Positions 39,860 through 56,818 are shown, numbered from the stretch's first letter. The stretch is DNA of 64,000 nt from Phycisphaerae bacterium (GCA_963666835.2 CAXXGO010000001.1:960001-1024000); one strand, 5' to 3'. Numbers and translations: made by a program. The notes: generated by a model not told the origin, from the letters alone.

Positions 39860-40060
39860 TCACCGCGCCCTGTCACGGTGGGTGTCGCTACGTTTCTTAC
39901 TTGCGTTGGTCTCCGCCTCCCGTTGTCGTAACGCATTGACTGCCGATTCGAAACGGGGGCCGAGCCGCAGCGCCCGTTCATAATCCTTCATGGCCGGGCG
40001 GTACTTTCTGATAGCCGCTGACGCTTCTCCAAGGTTATTAAGCGCCCTGGTTACCGCAGA
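39860..40060 (-). pseudogene. Orphan C-terminal TPR fragment
   Basis: Startless frame ALNNLGEASAAIRKYRPAMKDYERALRLGPRFESAVNALRQ...*. Confidence 0.45.
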
Positions 40061-40154
40061 GGCCTGCCGAGCCGGCGTCCTTCAAAAGCGTTCGTCGGCT
40101 ATCGATGTTGCTGTCGGTCTTCCGTGCTCAACGACTGTGCCCCCCCGGGCGGAA

Positions 40155-41363
40155 TTAGAATCTGATGTACGCGTACCCCTGAAGCTCGAGGTCAATGATT
40201 CGAGGGTAGGCGTTGGGCACGATCTTCACACCTGACAGGATGTCGTCCTCTGTCCAGCCGTGGCTCTTGATCGTTTGATCGCACACTTCCAAGACGATCC
40301 CCATTTCCAACAGTTGATTAACCAGCGCCCGATTGGGATTCTTCCCCTCGGTTTTGGCGTACGCTGTATATGCGCCGTCCTTCAACATCCAGTATGCGGC
40401 TTCCCCGTGGACAACGGCGACGATATGCAGATCGGCCGGCGAGGTCCCCATGGATCGGTATCCCTCGATGAGCTCCCGTACGCAGGCCAAGCCCGCGCCG
40501 ACGTTGTCCTTCCACTCATTCTGGTCGATTCGACATACGATCGCGATGTCCTTGCGCACGGTCAGAGTGGCGACGGTCTTCGGATCCGGAATCCAATACC
40601 ACGATTCGAAGATCTCTGCGCTTTTTGGCGAGCTTAGAAACTCGATGAACTGTGCCGCGGCGGGTTTGGTTTTGCCACGTTCGGTGAGGGCAGCGCTGCA
40701 GTAGCGATAGATTCTGTAGTCATCGCTCACTTCCACGATTCTCGCCCGATCCCTGAGCGGCATGTACCAGATGTTCCACGTGACATAGGCGTCAAGGTCC
40801 TGTCGTTCGTCCCATAGTCTCATTGCCGCGGTACTGTTTTGTGCGAAGACGGCGATGTTCTTGCGAAACGCACGGATCGTACGGATATCACCCTGTTTGC
40901 CGGCCATGTCTTCCCACAGCCCGGTTTGGCCCGAACCGCTCACCACCATCACCTTCACCCCCGGCTTCAACAGGTCGGGGAAGTCTGCAATGTGCTTGGG
41001 GTTGTCGGGGCGGACTAACACTGCTGACGGACGCATGTACAGGGTGGTTATCGAGGTTCTGTCAATGCCGAGGTCCTTGCGTTGCAGGAACTCGGTCATC
41101 ATGAACCCGGCGCTTGCAAAGACCACGTCCGCCTTCTCAGCCGCCTCCGCAAGCCATTCGTCCGGTGGCCCGGCCACCACGTTGACAGCAATGTTGTTGG
41201 CATCGGCGAACCACCCGGCCGCCTCTTGCATAGCCGGTTCCGGCCCTTCCGATCCGTAAACGTGCAACACCTCCTGAGCATGGACCTGGGCTCCCCCCAA
41301 GCTGCCTAGCGCCAGAAGCAAACCGAAGATCCGCCGCGATGGGCGGTTGATGTTTTTCCACAT
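40155..41363 (-). CDS. AcfC/Peb3-like periplasmic anion-binding protein fused to a DsrE-family domain
   Basis: Signal peptide; VYGSEGPEPAMQEAA, LYMRPSAVLVRPDNPK, GSGQTGLWED; C-terminal VVHGEA, EVCDQT, VPNA, QGYAYI. Confidence 0.8.
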   Translation of the reverse strand: MWKNINRPSRRIFGLLLALGSLGGAQVHAQEVLHVYGSEGPEPAMQEAAGWFADANNIAVNVVAGPPDEWLAEAAEKADVVFASAGFMMTEFLQRKDLGIDRTSITTLYMRPSAVLVRPDNPKHIADFPDLLKPGVKVMVVSGSGQTGLWEDMAGKQGDIRTIRAFRKNIAVFAQNSTAAMRLWDERQDLDAYVTWNIWYMPLRDRARIVEVSDDYRIYRYCSAALTERGKTKPAAAQFIEFLSSPKSAEIFESWYWIPDPKTVATLTVRKDIAIVCRIDQNEWKDNVGAGLACVRELIEGYRSMGTSPADLHIVAVVHGEAAYWMLKDGAYTAYAKTEGKNPNRALVNQLLEMGIVLEVCDQTIKSHGWTEDDILSGVKIVPNAYPRIIDLELQGYAYIRF

Positions 41364-41534
41364 GGCAAGTTTCCCTGTTCCTTTGTGGTGTATATGTGCG
41401 ACCTAGTTTCAAGCGATCGGGGAGAACCGGGGCTTCGGAATACAGCTCACCGGTGCTTCCCGTCGACCCATTCTGGGTCCGGGATGCGAACCGTGATCGT
41501 TGGCCGTGGGAGCACCTGGGTCGTGCGGTCTTCG

Positions 41535-41621
41535 AGGTCCTTCGAACGCATCAAAGAGCTGATCCATCTCCTGCCGAAAACTCCTGAATCTCGGCCATGT
41601 GTTCCATTGCGTTAACGTCTT
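41535..41621 (-). pseudogene. Possible Hsp20 N-terminal remnant
   Basis: TLTQWNTWPRFRSFRQEMDQLFDAF, with AAG in place of a start codon and no alpha-crystallin domain. Confidence 0.4.
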
Positions 41622-41709
41622 ACACTTCTCAACAGAACGTGTTTGCCAGTTACTTCAGCGGCCGGCCGCGACGCCGGCATCGCCATGGTTTGCTGCTTCG
41701 GTCATCTGG

Positions 41710-42225
41710 TTACGCAGTTGCCTGCTCTTCACCGTTGTTGCTTTCTTGCTGGTGAGACTGCTGCGATTCTCTTCGTGTAGCTTCGGCGTCTACCAGACTG
41801 CGGATAAGCGCATGAACCGCTAGAGCGGCCGTGGAGAACTGCATCAGCTCACCCTCTTGGAGTGCGAATTGCTCGTCGGGTTGGTCGGAGGATCTCCGGA
41901 GTTCGCCCACAAGCTGTGGGGGAGCAATGATCGTCAGTTTTCTGATCAGGTGCTTCGTGCACTCTGCTCGAAGCCGATTCACTGTATCACTTGCGAAACG
42001 CTGGAGATGTTTCCCCACGTAGTGGTGCGGGGAGGCATAGGCGGGTCCGGTCTTCCCGCCGAAAGCCATCGACTTGCTGATACTGTACCTTGGCCAGCAG
42101 TTCTCAAACGCCCTTATTTCTTGGACATGATGGGTACCCTGTCTGGTAAAATCGCATCGCAAGAGCCGGCAGCGTTCCGCGTCGACCAAAGCGAACCAAG
42201 TACTGTCTGCAGTTCCCTTACTCAT
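41710..42225 (-). CDS. Host attachment protein (AtsE/baeRF-like release-factor fold)
   Basis: WFALVDAERCRLL, RFA, LTIIAPPQLVGELR. Confidence 0.75.
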   Translation of the reverse strand: MSKGTADSTWFALVDAERCRLLRCDFTRQGTHHVQEIRAFENCWPRYSISKSMAFGGKTGPAYASPHHYVGKHLQRFASDTVNRLRAECTKHLIRKLTIIAPPQLVGELRRSSDQPDEQFALQEGELMQFSTAALAVHALIRSLVDAEATRRESQQSHQQESNNGEEQATA

Positions 42226-42399
42226 GATCTGTTCTTGCGTGCGTCGTGCGAAGCGCTTGAGCAGTAGACTGAGTCACAAGGCCGAAGGCCGCGTTACGGC
42301 TTGGCACGCACTGGATGAACGGACGAAACAATCGAGGCCCGCGCCCGGCGGCGCGTTGCCGGCCGCGGGCCGGTCAGTCCCCCGGGAGCCACCGGTTGC

Positions 42400-42984
42400 C
42401 TACGGCTCAATCTGCTCACAGTCTACGTCCTCGCAAGTTGACCCCGCGTAGAACGTGCCGTTCATGTCGTAGCACCCGTCCTCGTCGATGTCGACGCACC
42501 TGCCACTCGGCAGACAGCAAGCTCCGCCGTCGTCGTTACGCGGCTCGGACGTCCACGAGTCCTCAGCGTCCGGTTCAGATTCAGGCTCAGGTTCGGGCTT
42601 GGCTGCCTTGGCCGACGTCATGTCGATGTAGCGCACGCCGTGCTTCTCGTAGAGCTTGCCTTTCAACTCAGCAGTCTCAAGAGCCAGCGACATGATCGTC
42701 CGTGCCGCTCCTTTGTTACCCTCGCCGATTAGGACAAGTCCTTCCTGGGTTTCCAGTGCTGCCGGCACTCCCGCACGGATGCAGTCGCGCACGCATTTGG
42801 CTTTGTCACTGGATTCGTACTTCTCCGTCATGAAGCTGTGGAGATCCACAACCTTGCCTGTCAGGGTTACGTCCCGCGGTTGACGGTTCTTGTCTCGGTC
42901 CCCGGCAGCGCACAACACTGATACGAGCAATACACCCACGACAGCCGTGATGACTGTTCTCGCGACATTCCGTTGGTTTCTCAT
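42400..42984 (-). CDS. Secreted hypothetical protein with C-terminal GACC Cys-rich motif
   Basis: Signal peptide; TLTGKVVD...CVRDCIRAGVP; acidic PE linker; GACCLPSGRC...C...STCEDVDC. Confidence 0.75.
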   Translation of the reverse strand: MRNQRNVARTVITAVVGVLLVSVLCAAGDRDKNRQPRDVTLTGKVVDLHSFMTEKYESSDKAKCVRDCIRAGVPAALETQEGLVLIGEGNKGAARTIMSLALETAELKGKLYEKHGVRYIDMTSAKAAKPEPEPESEPDAEDSWTSEPRNDDGGACCLPSGRCVDIDEDGCYDMNGTFYAGSTCEDVDCEQIEP

Positions 42985-43128
42985 GCCTGTTTTCTCCGTA
43001 TTACCGGGCCCATACGCCTCTGCACGTCACCTTTCCCCGTATGCGGCGCCGCGCCGCGACTACAATCCGTTTCGCCAAACGGCAAGGTCGCAGAGTCAGC
43101 CTCCACGCGGCTGGGGCCATCTGCCACG

Positions 43129-43194
43129 AGTATGATCCGAGCCGGACCGGGATGTAATTGGATAAGAGGGCTACTTCGGTTGGACTTTGGGCTT
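43129..43194 (-). promoter_or_regulatory. Tandem-box activated promoter P1 (overlaps the 3' end of the response regulator gene)
   Basis: AAGCCCAAAGTCCA-N8-AGCCCTCTTATCCA-N24-CATACT. Confidence 0.7.
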
Positions 43195-43803
43195 ACACAA
43201 GCCGGCCGCCTGGGCGAGCAGGACAAGGTCCGCGAGGGATTCTGCCTGCATTTTGTCCATGACGCGGGCACGATGCACCTTCACGGTCTTCTCGCTGGTC
43301 CCGAGTTGGAGTGCGATCTGTTTGTTGAGTTTGCCGGCGACGACAAGGGCGAAGACTTCTCGTTCACGAGGTGTGAGCCGCTCGATCCTGCGCAGGATCT
43401 CTGAGCGCTCGGCGTGCTCGTCACGGCTTCTCCGGTCCTTGGCGAGGGCGTGCTGAATCGCATCCAGAAGAGCTTGATCGTTGAACGGTTTGGAAATGAA
43501 ATCAACTGCGCCGGCTTTCATGGCCCGGACACTCATCGGAACGTCACCATGGCCGCTGATGAAGACAATCGGGATTGTAATCCCTCGCACGTTGAGCTCA
43601 TCTTGGAGGTCCAGACCGCTCAGGCCGGGCATGCGCACGTCCAGGACCAGGCACCCCGGCCGGGATGAATCGTAGCTGTCGAGGAACTCCTGTGCACTGC
43701 TGAACATCTCGACGTTAAGGCCGACCGAACGGGCCAGTCTTTGCAGAGCGCGCCGCACGGAGTCGTCATCGTCTACGATGAACGCTGTCGGCTGGACTTT
43801 CAT
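43171..43803 (-). CDS. FixJ/NarL-family response regulator (REC + LuxR HTH)
   Basis: IVDDD, LVLDVRMPG, ISGHG, KPF, LTPREREV, SEKTVKVHR. Confidence 0.93.
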   Translation of the reverse strand: MKVQPTAFIVDDDDSVRRALQRLARSVGLNVEMFSSAQEFLDSYDSSRPGCLVLDVRMPGLSGLDLQDELNVRGITIPIVFISGHGDVPMSVRAMKAGAVDFISKPFNDQALLDAIQHALAKDRRSRDEHAERSEILRRIERLTPREREVFALVVAGKLNKQIALQLGTSEKTVKVHRARVMDKMQAESLADLVLLAQAAGLCKPKVQPK

Positions 43804-43808
43804 GGGTT

Positions 43809-45080
43809 TCAGTCCTCCTGGCTGCAGGGCAAAACGAAATGCAACGTGCATCCGCCATCTGCGTTGGGGCTCGCCCACAGGCGACCGTGGTGGGCCGTAA
43901 TGATCGAGCTGCAAATCGCCAAACCCATGCCCATTCCGTCGGCCTTTGTAGTGAAGAAGGGTTCGAACATGTGCTCGGCTACCTTGTCCGATAACCCTGA
44001 TCCGTGGTCGTGTATGGAGACCTTCACGCCGTCATCGCATATAGTCGTCTCGACGATCATCTGTCGCCGTTCGGGCTTTGTCTCCAGCATTGCCTCCAGT
44101 CCGTTCCGAACTAAGTTGAGCAGCACCTGTTGGAGTTGCACCCGATCGCCCATGATCGGCCGGACGTCTTTGCCGAGGCAGAAACACACCTTGGCGTTCT
44201 CGCACCGGCCGAGCGCTTCTGCGATGGGAGCGATTCCTTTGACCAGTTCATTGATATTCAAGATGGAATACTCAGGCTCGCATCTGCGGAGCTGATCCCT
44301 CAGCCCCTGTACGACCCTGCTGGCCCGCTCAACGTCTTCTAAGATGTCTCCTAAGGCGTCCTGCACTTCGCCGGCAGACACATCTGCGTCGAGCATCCTC
44401 TGCGCCGCGCGGGCGTTGGTGCCGATGGCACAAAGCGGCTGGTTCAGCTCGTGCGCCATTGCGGCCGCGAACTCGCCTACGGCGTGGACGCGGCTCATGT
44501 GAGCGATCTCGGCCTGCTGGATTCGAATCGTCTCCTCGGCCTGCTTTACCGGAGTGATGTCCCGCTCGGTGGTGGCGATCGCCTCGAGCTTACCTGACGC
44601 ATCAATCAGGGCCGTGACGGTCAGCCAGATGTTTATGGTCCTGGCATCCTTCGTCAGCCGGGTCGTCTCAAAGGACTTGACGGTCTCGCCTGAAGCGATC
44701 TGGTAAGCGAAGGCCTGAGCTTCGGGTCGCGAATCAGGCGGGACGAGCTTCAGGATGCTCATCCCCAAGGCCTCTGCCTCGGTGTAGCCGTACATCAGCT
44801 CGGCGCCCCGGTTCCAGGCGAGGATTTGCCCATCGAAAGTCTGGATAATGACCGCATCGTTGGAGTTCCTGACGATGGCCGTGAGGCGTCGCAGCTCCGC
44901 CTCCGCGTCTTTGCGGTCGCGCGGAGCTGCCTCTTTGGGCAGGTGTTTGACGAGAGCGGGCGCGGGCAGCTCTGTTTGAACCCCAGCGACGGCGGCCGGC
45001 GCGTGTGCCGGCGTGCCCGAGCCCGGCCCCTGCATGCTACCGGTCTTCGAGGATTGTCGCCTCTGCCTCCGGCTTTTCAT
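43809..45080 (-). CDS. Soluble PAS-domain sensor histidine kinase (FixL-like kinase core)
   Basis: GGAGG then ATG 45080; PAS WNRGAELMYGY; AHELNQPL, QVLLNLVRNG, DHGSG, FFTTK, GMGLAI; no transmembrane segment. Confidence 0.92.
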   Translation of the reverse strand: MKSRRQRRQSSKTGSMQGPGSGTPAHAPAAVAGVQTELPAPALVKHLPKEAAPRDRKDAEAELRRLTAIVRNSNDAVIIQTFDGQILAWNRGAELMYGYTEAEALGMSILKLVPPDSRPEAQAFAYQIASGETVKSFETTRLTKDARTINIWLTVTALIDASGKLEAIATTERDITPVKQAEETIRIQQAEIAHMSRVHAVGEFAAAMAHELNQPLCAIGTNARAAQRMLDADVSAGEVQDALGDILEDVERASRVVQGLRDQLRRCEPEYSILNINELVKGIAPIAEALGRCENAKVCFCLGKDVRPIMGDRVQLQQVLLNLVRNGLEAMLETKPERRQMIVETTICDDGVKVSIHDHGSGLSDKVAEHMFEPFFTTKADGMGMGLAICSSIITAHHGRLWASPNADGGCTLHFVLPCSQED

Positions 45081-45178
45081 CTGGACCTCCCGGCAGCAAC
45101 GTTCGCGGAAAGATGGTCTCAAACCGCACCATTGTAACGATGGCAGGAACCGTTCCGCAACTTGCTGGGGGCCTACCT

Positions 45179-45244
45179 TGCCCTAAAGTCCAACGTGGCT
45201 AGGGCCAACGGCCAATAGTACCGGACGGCTCCTCCGGGCATACT
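45179..45244 (+). promoter_or_regulatory. Tandem-box activated promoter P2
   Basis: TGCCCTAAAGTCCA-N8-AGGGCCAACGGCCA-N24-CATACT. Confidence 0.7.
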
Positions 45245-45452
45245 CCGAGAGCTGCTCGGCTGCGCTAGTTACGACGGCGCGGGTCCGGGTTCTATGGACG
45301 TTAGCGTCCCTGCCTCCGGCGACGGGACCGCGGTTGGGGCGTTCCGAGCAGGCTCGGTCTTGGGGTTTATCTCGATGCCGCGCGGGTTGGGTATTGCAAC
45401 GCGAAGCAGCAGGTGGCGAGAGGCTGTCAACGTGCTGGAGTAGTAACGACCG

Positions 45453-46130
45453 ATGATCGAACACCTTTCATTTGCTCCGATATGGCTGCCCGTGTTGATC
45501 TTCTGTGCGCGAGTCGCGGACGTTTCGATCGGGACTCTTCGCATGATCTGCATTGTGCGGGACCAAAGGCCGCTAGCGGTGGTTCTGAGCTTTGCCGAAG
45601 TGACCATCTGGCTGTTAGCGGTGACCAGTGTGCTGACTCATCTGGACCAGTGGGTCAACATCCTCGCATACGCTGGGGGTTACGCAACGGGCAGCGCCGT
45701 TGGCATGTGGATCGAGAGCCGGCTCGCGCTCGGTACCCAGTTGGTGACATTCGTCTCATGCGGGACGGCGCAGGCGGTTGCGGAGCGGCTGCGATTTGCC
45801 GATCACGTTGTCACGACGATTGCGGGCAGGAATCACGATGGCCCAGTGTCCATCTGCCACGCGATTCTTCCACGCAAGCAGACGGCGGCGGTTATTCGGA
45901 TGGCACGAGAGATTGACCCGGACGTCATGGCGACGATCGAGGATGTTCGCGCTACGACGATTCATCACGCGGCGGGTTGCGGGCCGGGAAAGGTGCCTTT
46001 GTCATGGCGAGGCTCGATCCTGAACCGCCTGTTTGGAGGGTCTCAGCGCGGGCGTATGGCCTTCGACGGACGCCGCCGCGCAGCTTCCGGCGGCTTCGAC
46101 CCCGACACCGCTGTTTCGGAAGCGGCGTAG
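45453..46130 (+). CDS. UPF0316 (DUF5698/DUF2179) membrane protein
   Basis: IFCARVADVSIGTLR, FAEVTIW, YAGGYATG, IESRLALG, EIDPD. Confidence 0.88.
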   Translation: MIEHLSFAPIWLPVLIFCARVADVSIGTLRMICIVRDQRPLAVVLSFAEVTIWLLAVTSVLTHLDQWVNILAYAGGYATGSAVGMWIESRLALGTQLVTFVSCGTAQAVAERLRFADHVVTTIAGRNHDGPVSICHAILPRKQTAAVIRMAREIDPDVMATIEDVRATTIHHAAGCGPGKVPLSWRGSILNRLFGGSQRGRMAFDGRRRAASGGFDPDTAVSEAA

Positions 46131-46257
46131 TACTTCGCCGCACTGCAGAGGCGTCTTCGTTGCCTACACGCCGCTGTTCGCCTCGAACGCGGCATGCTCT
46201 ATGCCAGCAGCCGACCGGGGCTTGGTTTCAACATCGAGGGACTACCGGAGGTGACCC

Positions 46258-47619
46258 GTGCCTGACGCAGTCGACCGTCCGGCAGAAGAGCTTCAGAGCC
46301 TGATCGCCGAGGGCGATGGCGAGCGGCTTGACGAGTACGTGGGGTACCTCACTGCAGGCGAGACGGCGCGCGCGGTTTCCTGCCTGGAGGAGGGTGACCA
46401 GGCCCGCCTGCTGGATCTGATGTCTTCGGCGGATGCGGCGGCTCTTGTCGAGCAGATCCCCTGCGTCCAGGCGGCTCCGCTGATAGAGCATCTGGAGCCT
46501 GAGAAAGCGGCGGAGATTCTCCGCGAGCTCCCGAGTGACGAGCAAGCAGATTTGCTCACTGCGATCGAGCCGGAAAACGCGGAAGCCATCCTCGCAGAGA
46601 TGACCCCGCATGAGTCGCAGACCGTTCGGGAGCTTACCAACTACCCGGGCGATGTCGCGGGCGGACTCATGGTCGCCGAGTACGTCGACTTTCCGACCGA
46701 AGCCACTGTCGGCGACGTGATAGCCGGCCTTCAGCGCGGGGCCGACAAGTATCGTGATTATGCCGTGCAATACGTCTATGTCACTGCGGAAACGGGTGAG
46801 CTTGTTGGGGTCCTTCGGCTGCGTGATCTGCTGCTCGCCGGCAGGCATCAGGTCATTAGAAGCCTGATGATCCAAGAGCCGCGGTCTGTCCCGGTTCTTG
46901 CCGGCGTCGACGAGCTCTTCGATTTCTTCAGCCGGCATCATCTCTTAGGTGCGCCCGTCGTAGATGACGCCGGCAATCTTCTTGGGATTGTACACCGTGC
47001 CGCCGTCGAGGCGGCGCGAGGCGCCCATAGCGAAAGCAACTACCTCAAGTCCCAGGGCATTGTTGGCGGTGAGGAACTGCGCGCGATGCCGTTGCTGCTG
47101 CGCTCGCGTCGGCGGCTGGCATGGTTAAGCCTGAACATCGTCCTCAACATCGTCGCGGCCAGCGTGATTGCTTTCTATCAGGAAACGCTTGCTGCGGTGA
47201 TCGCCCTGGCCGTGTTCCTCCCGATCATCTCGGACATGAGCGGGTGCTCGGGCAGCCAAGCGGTTGCAGTGAGCATCAGGGAACTGACCATGGGGTTTGT
47301 GCGCCCGGTGGAGCTGGGTTATGTGCTTGCCAAGGAAGCCTGCGTTGGCTGCCTCAACGGACTTGTGCTGGGCATTCTCATCGCGTCGGTCGCTTGGCTG
47401 TGGAAAGGAAATCCCTTCCTCGGGCTCGTTGTCGGGGCGGCTATGGCTCTTAACACGCTCGTGTCCGTTTCCATTGGTGGGACCGTTCCGCTGATTCTGA
47501 AGCGGATGAATGTGGATCCTGCTCTGGCTTCCGGTCCAATCTTGACCACGATCACGGATATGTGTGGGTTCTTCTTGGTGCTCAGCCTTGCATCGGCTGC
47601 GCTGCCGCTCCTGTCGTAA
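46258..47619 (+). CDS. mgtE: Magnesium transporter MgtE
   Basis: MgtE_N, CBS pair (AGGLM, LVGVLRLRDL), RLAWL, SGCSGSQA, DPALASGPILTTITD. Confidence 0.93.
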   Translation: MPDAVDRPAEELQSLIAEGDGERLDEYVGYLTAGETARAVSCLEEGDQARLLDLMSSADAAALVEQIPCVQAAPLIEHLEPEKAAEILRELPSDEQADLLTAIEPENAEAILAEMTPHESQTVRELTNYPGDVAGGLMVAEYVDFPTEATVGDVIAGLQRGADKYRDYAVQYVYVTAETGELVGVLRLRDLLLAGRHQVIRSLMIQEPRSVPVLAGVDELFDFFSRHHLLGAPVVDDAGNLLGIVHRAAVEAARGAHSESNYLKSQGIVGGEELRAMPLLLRSRRRLAWLSLNIVLNIVAASVIAFYQETLAAVIALAVFLPIISDMSGCSGSQAVAVSIRELTMGFVRPVELGYVLAKEACVGCLNGLVLGILIASVAWLWKGNPFLGLVVGAAMALNTLVSVSIGGTVPLILKRMNVDPALASGPILTTITDMCGFFLVLSLASAALPLLS

Positions 47620-47629
47620 CCGGGACCCG

Positions 47630-48130
47630 CTACGCGGCAGGTCGCAGTACATGCGCCTCGGACAGTTCCCCCGGCGGGAAATCGATTCGCACGGGCCTGC
47701 GGGGCGCACGTCCCATCAACCAGAATCGGATGCGCTCCCACCATGTAAGTGATGTCTTCCAGTGGTTGATTGCTCTTCTGATCCTCGTGACCGCTCGGTG
47801 GTTCTCGTCGTTGATCTCGTCCAGAACCCACAGGCATCCGGATACGTTATGGGCCAGGAGTAACGCTGTAGCGTAGTTGGCCTTGACGACCGTTGGAATG
47901 TCCGGCCTGAGCGAGATGCCGTCCGGCTCGAGAACCAGGTCGCGATAGAGCTCGATGGCATTGACGATGTGTCCCACACGCATCAGGCTGACACCGTACG
48001 CGTCCGTCAGGGCCGGCGACCTGTGGCGGTGCTTGTCGAGGGCCACAAGTGCCTTGTATGGCCTGCCCGCCTTCAAGAACTTCCGTGCCTCTTCAACGAT
48101 GGTGTTGTCATCTCTTACATTCGTAGCCAT
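47630..48130 (-). CDS. Hypothetical helical/TPR-like protein
   Basis: AYGVSLMRVG...AIELYRDL, NYATALL; start at 48130 is consistent with promoter P3. Confidence 0.65.
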   Translation of the reverse strand: MATNVRDDNTIVEEARKFLKAGRPYKALVALDKHRHRSPALTDAYGVSLMRVGHIVNAIELYRDLVLEPDGISLRPDIPTVVKANYATALLLAHNVSGCLWVLDEINDENHRAVTRIRRAINHWKTSLTWWERIRFWLMGRAPRRPVRIDFPPGELSEAHVLRPAA

Positions 48131-48244
48131 GGCTGGACATCCGACCCTCTGTCGAAACTGCGTTCTCACCGCGAGCTTGCTTATCAGATATCTGTCCTGC
48201 AGACTTCTCAGGCATTGTTCCTTGATTGTGGACCCGCCATACAT

Positions 48245-48310
48245 ATTGTTAATCGTCGTTCGCCGTGAGGAAATTGGACCTCAGTCCAGGTTTGATGGGA
48301 CTTTCGGGAT
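48245..48310 (-). promoter_or_regulatory. Tandem-box activated promoter P3
   Basis: ATCCCGAAAGTCCC-N8-TGGACTGAGGTCCA-N24-AACAAT; second box is a perfect TGGAC-N4-GTCCA palindrome. Confidence 0.7.
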
Positions 48311-48484
48311 ATGGGAGGCGTGCCGCGCAGAGAGGGCAGCCAAGGCCGCGCGGTCATCGAAGCGATAGCAGGGGCGCTGTAAGAACGTATGGCGTTATCG
48401 ATTGCAGGCGGTTATATCGTCTGCCGTAGTCTGGATTCCCGCACCGGTCGAGTTCCTCTTCCATTCCCGCTAATCATGGCGGGT

Positions 48485-48550
48485 AGGGCGAAAGTCTCAT
48501 ACGAGTGGGCCTCAAAGCCTATAACATGTGGCCCTGCAGTCCTTTATACT
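48485..48550 (+). promoter_or_regulatory. Tandem-box activated promoter P4
   Basis: AGGGCGAAAGTCTC-N8-GGGCCTCAAAGCCT-N24-TATACT. Confidence 0.65.
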
Positions 48551-48618
48551 GGCAGCGTAGGAAAAGCGCCACGCGCCGGCAAGGCGTGAGCCATGAGTGG
48601 TAAGCCGGGGCAGGAACG

Positions 48619-50325
48619 ATGATCTTCAAGGGTAGGTGTATCAGCCGCGGGGTTGCGCGAGGTCCTGCGATCCTGTGGGATTCGGGACCAGCCCTGGCTT
48701 CTGCGCTGAAGACCCGCCCAAGCGGTCCTCCGGCGTTCGAGCTGGAGCGGCTAAACGCGGCAATCGGACGTGCGTGTGTCCAGCTTAACAGGATCCGCCG
48801 ACAGGTCGCGTGGCGCGCCACGGATCATTGCGAAGTGATCTTCGACACGCACGCCAGCTTGCTTCGTGACGCAGCATTCGTCGACAGAATCGAACACGCC
48901 ATCGTCGCAGACGGCCAATCAGCCGAGTCCGCGGTTTCACAGGTGGTTGGGGAACTTCATTCCAAGTTCTCGCGAAGTCAGACTCCGCTGGTGCATGAGA
49001 AGGCGGCGGATATCCTCGACATCGGATGGCGCTTGATCCGATGTCTTTCCACGACGCCCGCGAAGGATGATGCCTACTTCGCGGGTAAGGTCATCTTAGC
49101 CATCCTGGTGACACCTTCTGAGTTCGTTTATTTCGTCCAGCAAGGTGCCGTTGCGGTAGTCACCGAGTCCTGTGGCGCGAAATCACACACTGCCATTCTT
49201 GCCCGTGGGCTGGGCATTCCCTTGGTCACCGGCGTTTCCGCGGCTTCTGACATCCTGGCCACCGAAGTAGAAGTCCTTGTCGATGCCGATAGCGGCACAG
49301 TTGTCGTAGAACCCGACCAGGCCGATCCTGTCGTCGTACGACCCATCACGGATCGCCTCCAACATCGTACTGTCGGACGACCGGATCCGGTGCCCCCGGT
49401 TACCGCGGATGGCGTTTCGATCGAGTTGTTGTTGAACATCAGCATTCCCGCCGAAGCGGCCGCCGTGCGTTTGCTGGGCGCCGCCGGCGTCGGCCTGTTT
49501 CGCACCGAGTTCCTGTACATGGACTGCCTGGCTTGGCCGTCCGAAGATCAGAGCTACGCGGCATATCGGCGAGTGGCATCCGAGATCCAAGACGCGGAGC
49601 TGAATATCCGGTTGGCCGACTTTGGTGCGGAGAAGTGCCCGCCGTACGCGGACATTCCGGTCAATCGCAATCCCAGCCTTGGCTTGCGTGGGTTGCGGCT
49701 TCTGCTTCAAAGAGAGGACATTCTCCGGCCGCAGCTCTGCGCGATTTCGCGGCTGGCCCGGGAACGTCCTCTGACGGTTCTGCTTCCCATGCTTGACACG
49801 GTTGACTGTCTTCATGGGGCAACAAACAAGGTGTGCCGAATCCTGGGCTGCAAGGACCGACACGGCCTGCCTTTCAAACTGGGAACGATGATCGAGGTCC
49901 CCTCGGCTGCGTTGCAGGTCGACGAGATCTTACCGTATGTGGAGTCGATCGCCCTCGGGTTGAACGATCTGACTCAGTACTTGTTGGCCGCCGATCGGGA
50001 CGACGAGCTGGTCGAAGGTTACCATGACGCCCTGCAGCCGACGGTGCTCAGGCTTACGCGCGCGGTGGTCGAATCGGCCGGCCGTGCCGGCAAGCCGGTT
50101 ACCGTTTGTGGCGAACTGGCCGGCGACCCGACCATGACGGCTCCGCTCCTGGCCTTGGGTGTCAGACGCCTCAGTGTTTCGCAGTCCATGTTCCAGGATG
50201 TTGTCGAGGCGATCCGCCGCGTTCCGCTGGGTTCATTAGATGATCTTGCTGACCGGATTCTGAGCCTCGAATCAGGCGAGGCGGTTCGCAAGGTTCTTGC
50301 TGAGGAGCTGAAGTTGTATAAGTAG
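48619..50325 (+). CDS. PEP-protein phosphotransferase (PTS enzyme I-like)
   Basis: SHTAILAR phospho-His, GVGLFRTEF, NPSLGLRG, MIEVP, NDLTQY, VCGELA. Confidence 0.9.
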   Translation: MIFKGRCISRGVARGPAILWDSGPALASALKTRPSGPPAFELERLNAAIGRACVQLNRIRRQVAWRATDHCEVIFDTHASLLRDAAFVDRIEHAIVADGQSAESAVSQVVGELHSKFSRSQTPLVHEKAADILDIGWRLIRCLSTTPAKDDAYFAGKVILAILVTPSEFVYFVQQGAVAVVTESCGAKSHTAILARGLGIPLVTGVSAASDILATEVEVLVDADSGTVVVEPDQADPVVVRPITDRLQHRTVGRPDPVPPVTADGVSIELLLNISIPAEAAAVRLLGAAGVGLFRTEFLYMDCLAWPSEDQSYAAYRRVASEIQDAELNIRLADFGAEKCPPYADIPVNRNPSLGLRGLRLLLQREDILRPQLCAISRLARERPLTVLLPMLDTVDCLHGATNKVCRILGCKDRHGLPFKLGTMIEVPSAALQVDEILPYVESIALGLNDLTQYLLAADRDDELVEGYHDALQPTVLRLTRAVVESAGRAGKPVTVCGELAGDPTMTAPLLALGVRRLSVSQSMFQDVVEAIRRVPLGSLDDLADRILSLESGEAVRKVLAEELKLYK

Positions 50326-50827
50326 CCTAACTGGGCTGGAGAACTGCCCAGCTCGAAACGCGCGGTGTTCGCGGAGAAGGGCAATGGTCCGAACAAGATC
50401 TGTGGGCAGCGCCTGCCGGAAGTGTGGATCTACTGCATCACAGCCTGGTCGGTGTCTGTGAATTGGGGTGGGCCATTGAGATCAACGATGGGGGACTTCT
50501 GCCTCTGACGTCCGTACATGGGGGCTTGGCTACGGAGCCCCGAGCACCGCGTCGTGGTCGCCACTCGTCGACGGATCCGGCAGGTCCATGGGCTTTCGGC
50601 GGACGCCGCCTAGCCTGGGCCGCTCAATTGGCTAAACAGTTTTCGCAAGCCTCCGCGTCGGGAGTTTCTCACGCACGGCGAGGAGGAATCAGTGAGCGAA
50701 CGTGCTGCTCGGGCACGCGCCCCAGGGGGTTGGAATGTCGGCGTGCCGCGCTATCGTATTACGCACGGTTCAGACTCGATATTAACGATGTTTCCTGTTG
50801 ACCCCCGTGGCCGGGTACGCGCCATCG

Positions 50828-51550
50828 TCACCTTGCTTTTGTTGTGCCCCCTTTCATCGCAGTGCGCACGGCCAAGATTGCCTCAACGGCCTGGTCGATG
50901 GCGAAGTGCTCCATGTTGAGCGTCAGATCACACCGCATTGGATCATTGATGTCAACACGGAAGTGCTGCCGAACAAACTCAGCACGCTCTCGGTCTATCC
51001 TGGTTACGAGATCTCCGGCCTGTTTTAAGGTGATGCCATGGCGATCGGCGAATCGCTGCAAACGCATCGCGATGGGTGCTACAATCCGAACCCGGAAGCC
51101 AAGGTTCAGCGGCAGCATGAGATCGGCGCCGCGGCCTACGAAAACGGCAGAACCTTGGCGAGCCAACGAGAGTGTCGTCTTTACAAGGCGTCGAAAGTAG
51201 TCGTTCCTGCTGAACTCTGGATCGGTGACCGAACGAAAGGCCTCCTCCCACCAGCCCAAGTCTTGCTCATCAAGGGACTCGTAGATTCTGTGGCGGGTCG
51301 CGTCGTCTCCGGCCATGGCTTGCAGGATTTCCTTATCCAGCCGCGGCCATTTGAGTCGCGCAGCCAAGGCGGCGGATATTTCCGATGCCCCAGCCCCCAC
51401 TTGCCGGGAGATGGTGATGAAATCCTCGACTTCCTGTCGGAGGGTCTCATCGCCAAGCGAGCGTTGAGTCCGTCTCATCTCCCAGTTCCGCAGCTGCCGA
51501 TCCACCATCTTTGCAATCTCAGGGCTATCGAATTTCCGCCGTTCCAACAT
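50828..51550 (-). CDS. Cytidylate kinase-like family protein
   Basis: ITISRQVGAGA, LDKEIL, VFVGRGA, RVRIVAP, DLTLN. Confidence 0.85.
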   Translation of the reverse strand: MLERRKFDSPEIAKMVDRQLRNWEMRRTQRSLGDETLRQEVEDFITISRQVGAGASEISAALAARLKWPRLDKEILQAMAGDDATRHRIYESLDEQDLGWWEEAFRSVTDPEFSRNDYFRRLVKTTLSLARQGSAVFVGRGADLMLPLNLGFRVRIVAPIAMRLQRFADRHGITLKQAGDLVTRIDRERAEFVRQHFRVDINDPMRCDLTLNMEHFAIDQAVEAILAVRTAMKGGTTKAR

Positions 51551-51623
51551 GCTCCGAACTCCTTCTCACCTGTCGTAGCCAGTTACCCGCGCATGCAGGT
51601 TCTTCTGCCTGCGCGACGGATAC

Positions 51624-52508
51624 TTACTGTGTAGCGTCCTGCTTCTTCTTTGCCGTTAGCAAGACAAGCCCGCGCGCCGCCCGCATGACCGCCGTGGTCA
51701 CACTCCCGAGGACCATGTGGTAAAGCTTTGAACGGCCGTACGCACCCATGACCAGCAAGGTATGCTCAGCCGTGCGACAGACGATCGCGGAGGACGCGTC
51801 GCCGGCATCGTGCTCGAACGCCGCAGTTTGCAGTTCCGGGAACTGATTTCTTGCGTTCTCCCAAAGGGATGAGCAGCGCGCGGGATCCCGTTCAACCGTG
51901 ATCACCGTTATTGGGAGGTCAAGTGCCCGTGAGCAGTCTATACCCGTCCGCAGCACCGCGTCATCAAGTGATTTCCCGCCGTAGGCGACTATGACTCTGT
52001 GCGGCCAGACATAGTGCTCCGGGGTGAGCAGCACCGGCTTATGCGAACGTCGAATAATCAGCTCGGTGTTCGTCCCCAGAAGCCCACCGTGGTCGGACCG
52101 GTGCCCGAGCTTGCCTAACACAAGCAATGAGGCTCGGTTGCTTGCCTCAACCATGCAGTCCGTCACTCGCCCTTGAGCTCGTTCAATAGAGACGGGGTAT
52201 CCGATCTCTCGGGCAGTCTGCTCGATTTGCTGCGCCGTGCGGTTTCCCGCGAGCGTTGCCAGCCTCTCGGCCTCCTCCATGAAATGTCTGAGCGCGTCGC
52301 CGTGCCCTACGAGCATTCCGCAAGATACTATGAAGTCTTCGACGATCAGGCTTTCGACGTTGACAGACGTTCTTCGGGCGATTTCGAGAGCATAACGCAA
52401 CGCCTGAAGGGACCGGGCAGAACCGCCAACGCCAACAAGAAGATGCTGGAACAGGTCTTCGGGTTGGCGATCGCTGCTGCCCGACGCATGGGTTGAGTTC
52501 CTCTGCAT
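51624..52508 (-). CDS. Universal stress protein (tandem USP domains)
   Basis: LLVLGKLG...LGTNTE...KPVL; LLVMGAYGRS...LGSVT. Confidence 0.88.
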   Translation of the reverse strand: MQRNSTHASGSSDRQPEDLFQHLLVGVGGSARSLQALRYALEIARRTSVNVESLIVEDFIVSCGMLVGHGDALRHFMEEAERLATLAGNRTAQQIEQTAREIGYPVSIERAQGRVTDCMVEASNRASLLVLGKLGHRSDHGGLLGTNTELIIRRSHKPVLLTPEHYVWPHRVIVAYGGKSLDDAVLRTGIDCSRALDLPITVITVERDPARCSSLWENARNQFPELQTAAFEHDAGDASSAIVCRTAEHTLLVMGAYGRSKLYHMVLGSVTTAVMRAARGLVLLTAKKKQDATQ

Positions 52509-52629
52509 TGCCTATCGCCTCATAAAACGCCAGGCCTTGGGAACAACCGGCCATCGTAGAGCTCCGCCGGCACTCATTGTCGCGGGAGCCGCTCGCCGAA
52601 TCAATTGGCGTTCCCGATTCCCTGGTCTT

Positions 52630-52651
52630 CGGCACCGGCTCGCCGGTGCCG
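52630..52651. terminator. GC-rich hairpin between the lon-like gene and usp
   Basis: CGGCACCGGC-TC-GCCGGTGCCG perfect inverted repeat; no clear U-tract. Confidence 0.35.
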
Positions 52652-52759
52652 GTCGTAGCAGGCGGTGTTCTTGCACCTGCTCAGGTTGGTGGACATACTT
52701 CGCGGTACGGGTAGCCGGGCGGCAATCCACGGCCAGGCGATCTAACACGGGGCGTTCAG

Positions 52760-55258: not shown

Positions 55259-55588
55259 GAGAGCATCCTCCTTAAGACGCCTGTCTTTGTGGGGCCACCA
55301 TGAGCCGCCTGGTATTCCCAATGTAACACCGCCGAGCAGATTAGCGAAGGCCTAGAGCGGGCTTTGCGGACTGTAAATGGCTCGGATTCCGGGAAGCGCG
55401 GCACGATTTTGCCGAAAGAGCTTCCGCGCCGCGCATTTAGGTCGCCCCGACGTGGCCGAATTCCTTGTGCCCTACGGTCTCGCTCACGCGGACCCGCCAG
55501 TTCGTGCCGGCGATGTCGTTCGCAGTCAGGTGTGCAGATGGCTTGATATCGTTGACCCATCGTGGCCCGAGAGCGTTTCCGCACCCCC

Positions 55589-55616
55589 TTGCCACCGATC
55601 GCGGATGACCTATGCT
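55589..55616 (+). promoter_or_regulatory. Putative sigma70 promoter of sodB
   Basis: TTGCCA-16 nt-TATGCT upstream of AAAGGA RBS. Confidence 0.4.
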
Positions 55617-55673
55617 GCCACCTTGCTCGGATTGTCGTCTCCAGAATCAGTGACTCGTTGAAAGGAACCACCG

Positions 55674-56264
55674 ATGTCTTTCACCCTCCCCGATCTTCCG
55701 TACGAAAAGAGCGCCCTTGAGCCACACATCAGCGCGGAGACGCTCGAGTTTCATCATGGCAAGCACCACAATGCCTACGTCACGAACTTGAACAAGCTGA
55801 TCACCGGGACGCCGCACGAGCAGAAGCCGCTGGAGGACATTATCAGTGCCAGCGAGGGGGGCATATTCAACAACGCTGCGCAAGTGTGGAACCACACGTT
55901 CTACTGGAACAGCCTCAGGCCAGGTGGCGGCGGTAAACCAACGGGCCCACTGGGCGACGCGATCAAGCGCGACTTCGGCTCGTTCGCCAAGTTCAAGGAG
56001 GCGTTTGCGGAAGCTGCTGCCACGCAATTCGGATCCGGTTGGGCCTGGCTAGTCTTGGATGGTGGCAAACTGCAGGTGACGAAGACAGCCAACGCAGACC
56101 TGCCGATGAAGCACGGGCAGACCGCCTTGCTCACCATCGATGTGTGGGAACATGCCTACTACGTCGATTACCGAAACGCTCGGCCGCAGTATATCGATGC
56201 CGTGATCACAAACTTGCTTAACTGGAATTCCGCGGCCAGCAACTTCGAAAGAGCAAGCGCCTAA
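55674..56264 (+). CDS. sodB: Superoxide dismutase [Fe]
   Basis: HHGKHH, FNNAAQVWNH, QFGSGWAWL, DVWEHAYY. Confidence 0.95.
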   Translation: MSFTLPDLPYEKSALEPHISAETLEFHHGKHHNAYVTNLNKLITGTPHEQKPLEDIISASEGGIFNNAAQVWNHTFYWNSLRPGGGGKPTGPLGDAIKRDFGSFAKFKEAFAEAAATQFGSGWAWLVLDGGKLQVTKTANADLPMKHGQTALLTIDVWEHAYYVDYRNARPQYIDAVITNLLNWNSAASNFERASA

Positions 56265-56424
56265 CGCCGTATCGAGACTGTTGATGACGGAGTAGTGTTG
56301 CTATCTCTTGCCATCAAAAGGGCATGCGGCGACTAAGTACACCGACATGATGGAGACCGGCACGTCGACATGCGCCCTCGGGCGCGATGAAAGGCGTGTG
56401 CCCGCTACTCTCACCCCTTTGGGG

Positions 56425-56760: not shown

Positions 56761-56818
56761 GACTAAGTGAAGTGCTCACAACCTCTGAAGGTGGATCGGC
56801 AGCCCTACCGCGGCGAAT

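Follow-up and report, generated by a model that had tools for sequence, protein, structure and literature searches.

The window analysed here, a stretch of 64,000 nucleotides from an uncultured bacterium of the Phycisphaerae type (genome G000; 6.0 Mb), contains a sensor kinase-regulator gene pair with similar-looking upstream regions around it. Do these regions share one promoter design, and is the local regulator the protein that acts on them? An earlier note on this DNA had answered both questions positively and had likened the design to the promoters served by DosR of Mycobacterium tuberculosis.

A promoter layout unique in the genome

The four 66-bp strings on which that proposal was built were all found in the window, and their alignment confirmed an ungapped succession of a 14-bp box, eight nucleotides, a second 14-bp box, 24 nucleotides and a hexamer, with the tandem boxes lying 22 bp apart at each of the four promoters:

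43194->43129, minus strand: P1, with box 1 at 43194-43181, box 2 at 43172-43159 and the −10 hexamer CATACT at 43134-43129
45179->45244, plus strand: P2, with box 1 at 45179-45192, box 2 at 45201-45214 and the −10 hexamer CATACT at 45239-45244
48310->48245, minus strand: P3, with box 1 at 48310-48297, box 2 (TGGACTGAGGTCCA) at 48288-48275 and the hexamer AACAAT at 48250-48245
48485->48550, plus strand: P4, with box 1 at 48485-48498, box 2 at 48507-48520 and the −10 hexamer TATACT at 48545-48550

Eighteen columns are invariant in the 80-column alignment of P1 to P4, which reveals no extended similarity beyond the boxes. Box 1 of P1 is situated within the 3'-terminal codons of the regulator gene (43171..43803). 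Transcription is predicted to start near 43122 at P1 and near 45251 at P2. The description of these promoters as having a poor −35 element exactly 17 nucleotides from the −10 hexamer held for P2 and P3, which are poor at either spacing, but it depended on the register for P1 and P4: at a spacing of 18 nucleotides, ATTACA of P1 (counted by hand) and ATAACA of P4 each match the −35 consensus at 4/6 positions, and P4 as a whole (ATAACA-18-TATACT) reached 9/12 in a consensus scan. AACAAT of P3 is the weakest −10 of the four and is overlapped, in the same scan, by an alternative, TTAACA-16-CACAAT.

In an alignment of ten sites, which has 14 invariant columns, the boxes read nnGCCnAAAGTCCA. The GGAC-N4-GTCC core that had been ascribed to them was recovered, with the right half GTCC complete (4/4) in 9/10 copies of box 1 and a mostly degenerate left half, in which 1-4 of the 4 positions of GGAC are matched. 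Perfect inverted repeats occur only at box 2 of P3 in G000 and at box 1 of P2 in the relative G019 (GGGACTATAGTCCC). At least 4/5 self-complementary pairs are present in 4/20 boxes, with about 0.3 expected (null P = 0.016 per box) and the boxes not being independent of each other. We infer that each box is a pseudo-palindrome, GGAC-N4-GTCC, of which the promoter-proximal half (AAAGTCCA) is the strong one.

To place the layout against the genomic background, we built a position weight matrix from three of the promoters and ranked the fourth among all positions of the genome on both strands. The complete 66-bp layout stood far above background, P1, P2, P3 and P4 ranking 4, 10, 4 and 4 among 12,045,428 positions. 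Since the top ranks are taken by the three training sites, nothing else in 6.0 Mb outscored the left-out promoter in the case of P1, P3 and P4; P2 was outranked by six unrelated positions. Box 1 alone ranked 160, 767, 49 and 978 among 12,046,156 positions (P1 to P4), and box 2 alone 30,277, 100,864, 39,889 and 40,379 among about 12.05 million, so that box 2 by itself barely exceeds background. The 7-mer AAAGTCC shows no enrichment across the genome (400 observed, 435 expected); the signal is the composite layout and not the word. With the full matrix the four sites scored 32.1-36.9 bits and the next genome position 20.5 bits, while the model R1, run over the window with its filters off, gave four matches at E <= 6.3e-12 and a next one at E = 1.4. 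Neither the genome-wide matrix scan nor the model search found a fifth site in G000.

The regulator, its kinase and the genes after the promoters

The gene pair and the genes that follow the four promoters are arranged as follows:

43171..43803, minus strand: response regulator of 210 amino acids, receiver plus LuxR/GerE helix-turn-helix, recognition helix SEKTVKVHR
43809..45080, minus strand: soluble sensor histidine kinase of about 423 amino acids with PAS, HisKA (PF00512) and HATPase_c domains (Pfam), ATG at 45080
45131..45136, minus strand: TACAAT, the putative −10 hexamer of a kinase-regulator operon promoter
42400..42984, minus strand: first gene after P1, encoding a secreted or lipoprotein-like protein of 194 amino acids with a Cys-rich C-terminus
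41710..42225, minus strand: second gene after P1, baeRF_family12 / Host_attach (Pfam, 2.2e-08)
45453..46130, plus strand: first gene after P2, DUF5698/DUF2179 membrane protein (Pfam, 5.4e-21)
46258..47619, plus strand: second gene after P2, MgtE magnesium transporter (Pfam; TIGR00400, 267.3 bits, cut-off 232.75)
47630..48130, minus strand: gene after P3, conserved protein of 166 amino acids with no Pfam or NCBIfam family match
48619..50325, plus strand: gene after P4, PTS enzyme I of the PtsI family (Pfam PEP-utilizers N, mobile and C; TIGR01417, 348.3 bits, cut-off 341.7)

Matched in Pfam by Response_reg (1.6e-29, residues 8-117) and GerE (1.7e-20, residues 142-197), the regulator belongs to the NarL/FixJ class with its LuxR-type helix-turn-helix. 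Its best match among solved structures is StyR of Pseudomonas fluorescens (1yio; 5e-58, residues 2-198), ahead of B. japonicum FixJ (1.8e-47) and DevR (3c3w; 7.2e-11), and the receiver aligns full-length with StyR and FixJ. When the DNA-binding domain alone was compared, FixJ (1x3u) came first at 1.9e-14 and DevR (1zlj) reached 2.7e-4. The best-scoring NCBIfam model was that of FixJ (NF006900) with 234.9 bits, below its cut-off of 255. The StyR helix, AEVTVKVHR, differs from SEKTVKVHR in two positions, the first lysine of the latter being Val in StyR; the boxes of StyR and TodT are AT-rich palindromes.

The kinase comprises a single PAS domain and a single kinase core; in StyS and TodS, which are large sensors, the kinase module is present twice. 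Its core is FixL-like (9.6e-60 to chimeras bearing the FixL kinase) and its H-box, AHELNQPL, aligns with that of FixL; the FixL model NF041777 scored 233.7 bits, below its cut-off of 850. By these comparisons, regulator and kinase are FixJ/StyR-FixL-like by descent. Orthology with DosR/DosS was rejected because of the gap between the DevR and StyR scores and because the kinase lacks GAF domains: DosS is built from GAF-GAF (haem) and HisKA_3, unlike the PAS plus HisKA arrangement found here. The PAS stretch (residues 61-185) contains 0 His and 0 Cys; without His it has no FixL-type haem ligand, and the signal of the kinase probably involves neither haem-His nor LOV-Cys chemistry. Upstream of the pair, G000 and G019 align at CATTGTA (plus strand), and TACAAT is seen by eye in the same region of G200. 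A second close homologue of the regulator, a 51%-identical paralogue, is encoded in G000 at G000:C6:1749652-1750242, and many FixJ-type paralogues are present in the order, several of them with an SEKT(V/I)K helix.

The 194-amino-acid lipoprotein-like protein had no Pfam or NCBIfam match. Its orthologues follow P1 in G019 and G200, with the baeRF_family12 / Host_attach gene again coming next, and its closest homologue (locus L067, 74% identity) has no boxes upstream. Homologues of the 166-amino-acid protein (35-47% identity, beginning near residue 1-16) occur in 15/100 other family genomes; G019, G200, G170 and G169, the genomes with a regulator orthologue of at least 75% identity, are not among these 15. 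On the same strand after P1, G200 carries four HSP20 genes and a cytidylate-kinase-like gene, and G019 carries genes for CorA, a Ser/Thr kinase and a PP2C phosphatase. A Usp gene lies nearby in G000, without a box of its own. Among the window ORFs scanned (28019-63122) there was no Crp/Fnr-family or sigma-54-activator domain, and no aromatic-degradation genes were found nearby in the window.

Conservation of the layout in relatives

A model trained on the four G000 sites only (R2) was used to search five whole related genomes. It gave eight matches at E <= 10, the best of which fall at the corresponding places in related genera:

G200, P1: E 8.2e-10
G019, P1: E 2.5e-8
G200, P2: E 5.9e-8
G170, P1: E 1.3e-6
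G169, contig C13: E 2.5e-4
G169, P1: E 0.036
G024, P1-like and weak: E 0.122
G019, contig C56, an unrelated place: E 0.549

The P1 layout is thus also found in G019, G200, G170 and G169, the G024 match being weak, and P2 is kept upstream of the orthologous DUF5698 gene in G019 and G200. When P1 was aligned from three genera, box 1 through ATTACATCC and the CATACT hexamer proved invariant and the spacer between them largely diverged; the 17-nucleotide spacers have likewise diverged in the relatives, so that the layout is conserved to the base despite changing spacers. An alternative sigma factor, rather than an activator, could in principle recognise such shared elements, since a conserved ATTAC is found repeatedly in the −35 place and CATACT in the −10 place. 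We regard this as very unlikely: the element with the best conservation has its centre near −65, well upstream of where a sigma factor makes contact, and shows inverted-repeat character, and ATTAC is specific to P1, its counterparts at P2 to P4 being ATAGT, ATTTC and ATAAC.

Of the 101 genomes of the family, G000 among them, six had an R1 match at E <= 0.01, namely the five genomes with a regulator of at least 75% identity and G024; the count is partly circular, 10/12 matches having served for training and P1 sharing sequence with the regulator gene. The sole non-training match at E <= 1e-3 was G169:C13:259997 (E 3.1e-6); a further weak one (E 0.008) lies in G024, at the 3' end of a gene whose product is a regulator homologue of 56% identity. 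P3 and P4 were seen in G000 only, the R1 search of the 101 family genomes having found no counterpart in relatives. The G169:C13 site is unlinked to kinase-regulator genes and stands, on another contig, upstream of a lipoprotein orthologue (53% identity); in this genome the layout follows the relocated target gene.

Regulator orthologues at E <= 1e-80 are likewise found in 6/101 family genomes, G000 included, and the layout is linked to the pair: in the five relatives examined it is located at the 3' end of an orthologue or homologue of the regulator gene (P1) or beside the kinase-regulator pair (P2). These are few independent observations, because the system is present in no more than about five lineages and its P1 copies are orthologues of each other. 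The 65%-identical regulator of G167 is accompanied by no R1 match, and the layout is absent from the 3' ends of the homologues L016 and L028, whose helix reads SEKT(V/I)K(V/I)HR; the helix alone is therefore no predictor of the box. The boxes might be genuine operators of another protein, either the 51%-identical paralogue or an unrelated regulator, their linkage to the pair being incidental, and the abundance in the order of FixJ-type paralogues with the same kind of helix gives this some substance. It is nevertheless improbable, given that in all five relatives the layout either sits at the 3' terminus of the regulator-kinase orthologues or homologues or is divergent from them, and that no other site exists in the genome, where those of a global regulator could well be more numerous.

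The overlap of P1 with the regulator gene allowed a comparison of codons at positions where the amino acid is identical in G000, G019, G200 and G170. Over codon positions 1-200 the same codon is used at about 6.8% of 133 such positions (9 by arithmetic), as against 3/3 in codons 206-208 (AAA GTC CAA) and 4/7 in codons 201-208. On this codon evidence, box 1 of P1 is under selection at the DNA level within the coding tail of the regulator. That the likeness of the four sites is due to chance, or to copies of repeated or mobile DNA without a regulatory role, is hardly credible. The sites had been picked by eye, and AAAGTCC shows no enrichment; yet the leave-one-out ranks, the transfer of R2 to relatives and the frozen synonymous sites all contradict such an origin, orthologous sites persist in other genera with diverged spacers, and the four sites share no extended similarity outside the boxes.

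Comparison with known operators and a proposed mechanism

The closest known systems are the DevR/DosR dormancy promoters of M. tuberculosis with OsdR of Streptomyces, FixL/FixJ of rhizobia with its fixK and nifA promoters, and the StyS/StyR and TodS/TodT pairs. For DosR, PMC3177182 gives the half-site GGGACT and primary and secondary boxes at −42.5 and −63.5 with a need for helical phasing, which bears out the description in the earlier note of paired DosR sites near −35. Here the box centres lie at −43.5 and −65.5 from the predicted start, with 22 bp from centre to centre versus 21 in DevR. As at the DevR promoters described there, a strong and a weak box stand in tandem on one face of the DNA, with the proximal box predicted to adjoin the −35 region, but the left half-site is mostly degenerate, whereas the DevR palindrome has GGGACT in each half. 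The 20-bp DosR probe listed in Table 1 of PMC5999986 contains CTAAAGTCC, as does box 1 of P2 in G000, of P1 in G170 and of P2 in G200.

The EKTVK helix attributed to both proteins is indeed common to them: translation of the primers in that table yields LAEKTVKNYV for DosR, to be compared with SEKTVKVHR, the register being set by the shared EKTVK and not by a printed alignment. Of the DNA-contacting DosR residues K179, K182 and N183 named in PMC5999986, both lysines are present in the local helix and N183 is replaced by Val. The likeness to DosR would accordingly lie in operator and helix residues, not in orthology.

S. meliloti FixJ protects −69/−44 and −57/−31 at fixK and hence, as in the layout here, occupies two regions, but the motifs given for it in the same report, GTAGTTTCCC, GTAMGTAG and TAAGTAATTTCCCTTA, are unlike AAAGTCCA (PMC4999443); the FixJ helix reads SPRTIEVYR versus SEKTVKVHR. 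An identity as an oxygen-sensing FixL/FixJ pair was rejected, as the FixJ and FixL scores are below their cut-offs and both the haem His and a FixJ-type operator are absent.

The reading that we favour, with a probability of roughly 70%, is that the phosphorylated FixJ/StyR-type regulator binds the four promoters as two dimers and activates weak promoters of the sigma-70 type. In this scheme the receiver Asp of the regulator would be phosphorylated by the PAS kinase. The distal box 1, which is well conserved and has its centre near −65.5, would be occupied by a first dimer, and a second would then be recruited to the weaker box 2 near −43.5, at a distance of 22 bp on the same side of the helix. 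Since box 2 abuts the −35 region, this second dimer could contact RNA polymerase in class II fashion. The two lysines of SEKTVKVHR may play the part of K179 and K182 in DosR and contact the half-site at its GG. The closeness of box 2 to the −35 region would also suit a regulator that binds but represses or acts dually, box 2 occupancy blocking the polymerase; P1 and P4, with their 4/6 −35-like hexamers at 18 nucleotides and good −10s, might fire unaided, and one report has unphosphorylated FixJ repressing nif promoters in R. palustris (PMC13327599). We consider this slightly less probable even than binding by another protein, because P2 and P3 have no usable −35 hexamer and because a base-exact spacing from box 2 to the −10 together with an in-phase upstream box is the hallmark of activating DevR and FixJ promoters.

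With the regulator acting as an activator, the kinase-regulator operon would be expressed from its own TACAAT promoter, and P1 at its 3' end would provide an inducible, feed-forward boost to the downstream genes. A broader reading, tentative and in our judgement somewhat doubtful as a whole, is that the last codons of the regulator are its own primary operator, with AAAGTCCAA frozen by selection on the DNA and not on the protein tail, so that an inducible promoter is hard-wired to the 3' end of the gene; that more distant homologues in the order use the same trick with the half-site ACGAC-N4-GTCGT; and that these proteins form a widespread, undescribed class of the FixJ branch that has come to share with DosR the operator, the recognition lysines and the architecture of the promoters, in the service of stress regulons.

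The output of the activated promoters would be a small, locally encoded stress set, consisting in G000 of the Cys-rich lipoprotein, baeRF12/Host_attach, DUF5698 with MgtE, the 166-amino-acid protein and PtsI, and in G200 and G019 of the same-strand genes after P1 that were named above. The regulator is a likely analogue of the tuberculosis dormancy regulator and would switch on a small stress-type gene set from four local promoters, compared with about 48 genes in M. tuberculosis according to PMC4973870. As in the DevR/DosR regulon, small heat-shock proteins are among the likely targets in a relative.

Layout of the four promoters and its uniqueness in the genome

Gene regulation in the Planctomycetota, and in the Phycisphaerae especially, is to our knowledge almost uncharted, and the genome studied here (G000; 6.0 Mb, 61% G+C, seven contigs) provides a concrete candidate operator, with four predicted promoters and a cognate two-component pair, in this poorly known group. 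The four promoter strings quoted in the earlier note proved exact to the base, as did the geometry assigned to them (a 14-bp box 1, eight bases, a 14-bp box 2, 24 bases and a −10 hexamer); they align without gaps, with 18 of 80 columns invariant. Each of the four promoters (P1 to P4) is directed into one of the gene units of the window (C1:960001-1024000):

41710-42225, minus strand: baeRF12/Host_attach protein
42400-42984, minus strand: 194-aa Cys-rich lipoprotein-like protein without family
43194 to 43129, minus strand: P1, string exact
43171-43803, minus strand: response regulator (receiver and GerE domains)
43809-45080, minus strand: PAS-HisKA-HATPase kinase
45179 to 45244, plus strand: P2, string exact
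45453-46130, plus strand: DUF5698/DUF2179 protein
46258-47619, plus strand: MgtE
47630-48130, minus strand: 166-aa unknown protein
48310 to 48245, minus strand: P3, string exact
48485 to 48550, plus strand: P4, string exact
48619-50325, plus strand: PTS enzyme I (PtsI)

The AAAGTCC word as such is not enriched in G000 (400 seen, 435 expected). The signal lies in the composite layout, which was assessed in a leave-one-out test by building a position weight matrix (PWM) from three promoters and ranking the fourth among 12,045,428 genome positions. The whole layout ranked 4 (P1), 10 (P2), 4 (P3) and 4 (P4), so that no non-training position of the genome outscores P1, P3 or P4, while P2 was outranked by six unrelated positions. 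Most of the information resides in box 1 (ranks 49-978 when scored alone), box 2 alone being weak (ranks 30,277-100,864). With the full PWM, the four sites scored 32.1-36.9 bits and the next genome position 20.5. The composite layout is unique in G000. A profile built from 10 sites of G000 and its relatives (R1), run on the window with filters off, likewise gave four matches at E ≤ 6.3e-12 and the next at E = 1.4. No fifth full-layout site was found in genome scans of G000 with the box 1-box 2 and box 1 PWMs or with R1 on the window, and single good box 1 matches (e.g., C5:108962, which scores 23.9 bits) have neither a box 2 nor a −10 hexamer. The same R1 search of the window detected no site in front of the neighbouring Usp, cytidylate-kinase-like, Lon, SOD and TerC genes.

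Two other sequence families surfaced outside the window in the genome scans. One is a conserved element some 70 nt long, present in at least five copies (C6:217194, C6:582717, C6:1909458, C6:1995737 and C1:1405692), which begins with (T/A)TGCCCAAAGTCCCTTCG(G/C)GACGG and runs on to GTACCATTGGGCAGAGCCCGAC; it was picked up through the AAAGTCCC that it contains, and it looks like a structured RNA or repeat family unrelated to P1-P4. Three copies (C1:1324050, C6:1257843 and C7:53604) of GAAAG(T/C)CAAAAGGACG(T/C)GGGCCACC, retrieved with the box 1-box 2 PWM, form another small repeat- or RNA-like family. As for the long leader of P2, an Rfam search of 40000-53000 at E ≤ 1 gave no family match, which rules it out as a known Mg2+ riboswitch.

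Conservation in relatives and content of the putative regulon

Orthologues of the regulator (E ≤ 1e-80) are present in six of 101 family genomes, G000 included; their identity to the G000 protein is 85% in G019, 84% in G200, 80% in G170, 75% in G169 and 65% in G167. P1 occurs with base-exact geometry in G019, G200, G170 and G169, and P2 is present in G019 and G200. The resulting 10-site alignment contains no gaps and has 14 invariant columns, and positions A2, A4 and T6 of the −10 hexamer are kept in all 10 sites. When the P1 regions of three genera are aligned, everything from box 1 through ATTACATCC, and likewise the CATACT hexamer, is without variation, the intervening spacer having largely diverged.

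R1 matched six of the 101 family genomes at E ≤ 0.01, 10 of its 12 matches being its own training sites. We also searched five whole related genomes with a profile made from the four G000 sites only (R2), which is free of this circularity. It yielded eight matches at E ≤ 10, seven of them at expected places; P2 of G019 was missed at this threshold.

Table. Matches of the R2 profile in five related genomes
G200 P1: E 8.2e-10
G019 P1: E 2.5e-8
G200 P2: E 5.9e-8
G170 P1: E 1.3e-6
G169:C13: E 2.5e-4
G169 P1: E 0.036
G024: E 0.122
G019:C56: E 0.549 (weak, elsewhere)

The site on contig C13 of G169 (G169:C13:259997; R1 E 3.1e-6) displays the full box 1-N8-box 2-ATTACATCC layout and lies 5' of the orthologue of the P1 lipoprotein gene (53% identity), which in G169 has moved away from the regulator neighbourhood; the motif thus follows a target gene. 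The G167 regulator is without an R1 match, the geometry was found near none of 28 loci encoding more distant regulator homologues (54-64% identity), and homologues with the same recognition helix exist without it. At one locus (L028), a single good box is present 360 bp 3' of a regulator homologue in a different layout. Among the loci of lipoprotein homologues searched with R1, filters off (17 of the 19 from species genomes; L068 and L069 were left out), only the known G169 site matched, and the closest homologue outside the clade (L067) has no boxes. A metagenome pattern, AAAGTCCA-N20-CAATTAC, returned at least 120 stretches, and none of 80 loci taken from these matched R1 at E ≤ 0.001; this pattern was too loose for the result to be informative on distribution. 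The system is carried by a handful of lineages only. The conserved layout is, as judged from sequence, a well-supported and probably real regulatory architecture.

Several features of the lipoprotein gene are noted in passing. Its product combines a Cys-containing signal peptide with a conserved core and, at the C-terminus, a CC...C...C...C...C motif, and matches no Pfam or NCBIfam family; homologues were detected in 19 species genomes (L067-L085), almost all of which carry a Phycisphaerae or Planctomycetota label and one a Desulfobacterales label. A perfect GC-rich inverted repeat, GCGGCGCGGCGCCGC, at 43043-43057 (minus strand) in the leader 3' of P1, 5' of the lipoprotein gene, is kept in G019, G200 and the box-less L067 and may form a leader hairpin of this gene.

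The genes that follow the promoters on the same strand differ between genera.

Table. Same-strand genes following P1 and P2 in relatives
G200, P1: lipoprotein, Host_attach, three HSP20, a cytidylate-kinase-like gene and a fourth HSP20
G200, P2: DUF5698
G019, P1: lipoprotein, Host_attach, CorA, Ser/Thr kinase and PP2C
G019, P2: DUF5698
G170 and G169, P1: PAD_porph-family gene (P2 not found in either genome)

In G200, the distance from P2 to the DUF5698 gene is about 50 bp, against about 530 bp to the start of the kinase gene; hence P2 belongs to the DUF5698 gene. P3 and P4 were seen in G000 only. They are located in a stretch of about 12 kb, running from MgtE to TerC, that is missing from the corresponding place in G200, where (locus L048) DUF5698 is directly followed by the PALP-DUF1611-creatininase genes corresponding to 58412-63122 in G000; G000 accordingly has about 12 kb extra (46258-58400). 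This putative stress-gene block comprises MgtE, the P3 gene, PtsI, a cytidylate-kinase-like gene, tandem Usp genes, a Lon-like protease, an Fe/Mn SOD and TerC. The 166-aa P3 product is encoded by a real and conserved gene: homologues occur in 15 of the 100 other family genomes, a set that includes none of the four genomes whose regulator orthologue is at least 75% identical. The putative regulon is small and plastic. The small heat-shock proteins, the Mg2+ channels in two genomes and the nearby Usp genes suggest a stress response, a guess made from gene content. Since the likely targets vary by genus (Mg2+ transporters, small heat-shock proteins, baeRF12/Host_attach, PtsI), the system should be useful for studying the gain and loss of members in small regulons.

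Descent of the two-component pair and likeness to DosR

The earlier note had described a DosR-box-like regulon activated by the local FixJ-type regulator. The operator half-site and the EKTVK recognition helix point to a likeness with DosR/DevR of Mycobacterium tuberculosis, while neither the descent of the regulator nor the type of sensor does. Full-length comparison places the regulator nearest to StyR (5e-58), followed by B. japonicum FixJ (1.8e-47), with DevR at 7.2e-11; its DNA-binding domain alone is nearest to FixJ, EL222 and StyR, with DosR at 2.7e-4. Strict membership of FixLJ fails as well, on haem ligand, operator and equivalog score: the regulator scores 234.9 against the NCBIfam FixJ equivalog cut-off of 255, just under it, and the published FixJ motifs (PMC4999443) are unrelated to the boxes. 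The catalytic core of the kinase is FixL-like; its PAS domain contains neither His nor Cys, which rules out both a haem FixL and a LOV sensor.

The helix SEKTVKVHR has EKTVK in common with LAEKTVKNYV of DosR (as translated from mutagenesis primers listed in PMC5999986, Table 1), whose core DNA-contacting residues are given as K179, K182 and N183 (PMC5999986). The first lysine is Val in StyR, and the FixJ helix reads SPRTIEVYR. Box 1 of G000 P2, G170 P1 and G200 P2 reads CTAAAGTCC, which is contained in the 20-bp DosR probe described there (PMC5999986). The GGAC-N4-GTCC core named in the earlier note is right, most boxes pairing a strong half-site with a degenerate one: in nine of 10 sites box 1 has GTCC as its promoter-proximal half, and one to four of the four positions of the distal half match GGAC. 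At least four of five self-complementary pairs are formed in four of 20 boxes, with about 0.3 expected by chance, the boxes being non-independent; these are G019 P2 box 1 (a perfect palindrome, GGGACTATAGTCCC), G000 P3 box 2, G200 P2 box 2 and G169 P1 box 1. A search of open-access text for GGAC-N4-GTCC and its variants returned a single DosR paper, which is insufficient to call the operator undescribed for FixJ-type regulators, and a search on Planctomycetes promoters gave nothing useful. On sequence comparison, the pair is a FixJ/StyR-branch two-component system with a putative DosR-like operator. We infer that the local regulator binds the boxes, because it is linked to the layout in all genomes carrying it. 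A FixJ/StyR-branch regulator with the two lysines, the half-site and the tandem geometry of DosR would imply that, in this family, the specificity for an operator can go with a few helix residues and not with descent.

The promoter switch appears to work as in DevR. According to PMC3177182, every DevR promoter has two or more tandem boxes, of which a conserved primary one brings DevR cooperatively to a poor secondary one; at tgs1 the boxes lie at −42.5 and −63.5, in a helical phase that is required for activation. The strong distal and weak proximal boxes found here, 22 bp apart with the proximal one abutting a mostly poor −35, fit this scheme. At the G000 sites, the centre of box 2 is 31.5 bp from the first base of the hexamer; a start assumed 7 nt past the hexamer would place the box centres at −65.5 and −43.5, and the predicted starts are near 43122 (minus strand), 45251 (plus), 48238 (minus) and 48557 (plus). 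FixJ of S. meliloti protects two regions at fixK, −69/−44 and −57/−31 (PMC4999443). From the DevR and FixJ precedents, phosphorylated regulator dimers would occupy box 1 and then cooperatively fill box 2, and polymerase would be contacted from a position overlapping the −35 region. P1 would in this way add inducible transcription of the genes 3' of it.

The kinase-regulator operon is preceded by a conserved TACAAT at 45136-45131 (minus strand), with TTGCGG 18 nt upstream by hand reading; this TACAAT seems to be the −10 of the operon's own candidate promoter (45131-45160). Because the centre of P2 box 1 lies about 61 bp upstream of the predicted start of that promoter, the regulator might autoregulate divergently through this box in G000 and G019; the distance in G200 argues against such divergent control there.

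A putative operator within the regulator's last codons

P1 stands out in that its box 1 lies inside the last codons of the regulator gene (K-P-K-V-Q, AAG CCC AAA GTC CAA), and the stop codon is placed where N8 and box 2 meet. We considered those codons whose amino acid is identical in G000, G019, G200 and G170. Across codon positions 1-200, only about 6.8% of 133 (nine by arithmetic) are the same codon in all four genomes, so that synonymous sites have nearly reached saturation. Codons 206-208 (AAA GTC CAA) are each identical in the four genomes, and so is codon 203; against the near-saturated background, the identity of codons 206-208 points to a nucleotide-level constraint on the strong half of box 1. 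An operator placed in the final codons of its regulator, with frozen synonymous sites, would be a clean and small example of dual-purpose DNA.

The operator-in-tail arrangement is seen again elsewhere, this time with a different half-site, and one of these cases belongs to another family of the same order. FixJ-type homologues of 56-62% identity that end in TTKV, at L066 (G024:C30, approximately 4856-4908), L017 (G017:C43) and L032 (G127:C16), carry in their last codons a box that is palindromic, ACGACCAA(A/G)G(T/C)CGT. After it come N8, a second box, 'AT' and a −10-like hexamer, arranged with the geometry of P1. The gene 3' of these boxes starts with MRILVIE or MRFL and may encode another response regulator.
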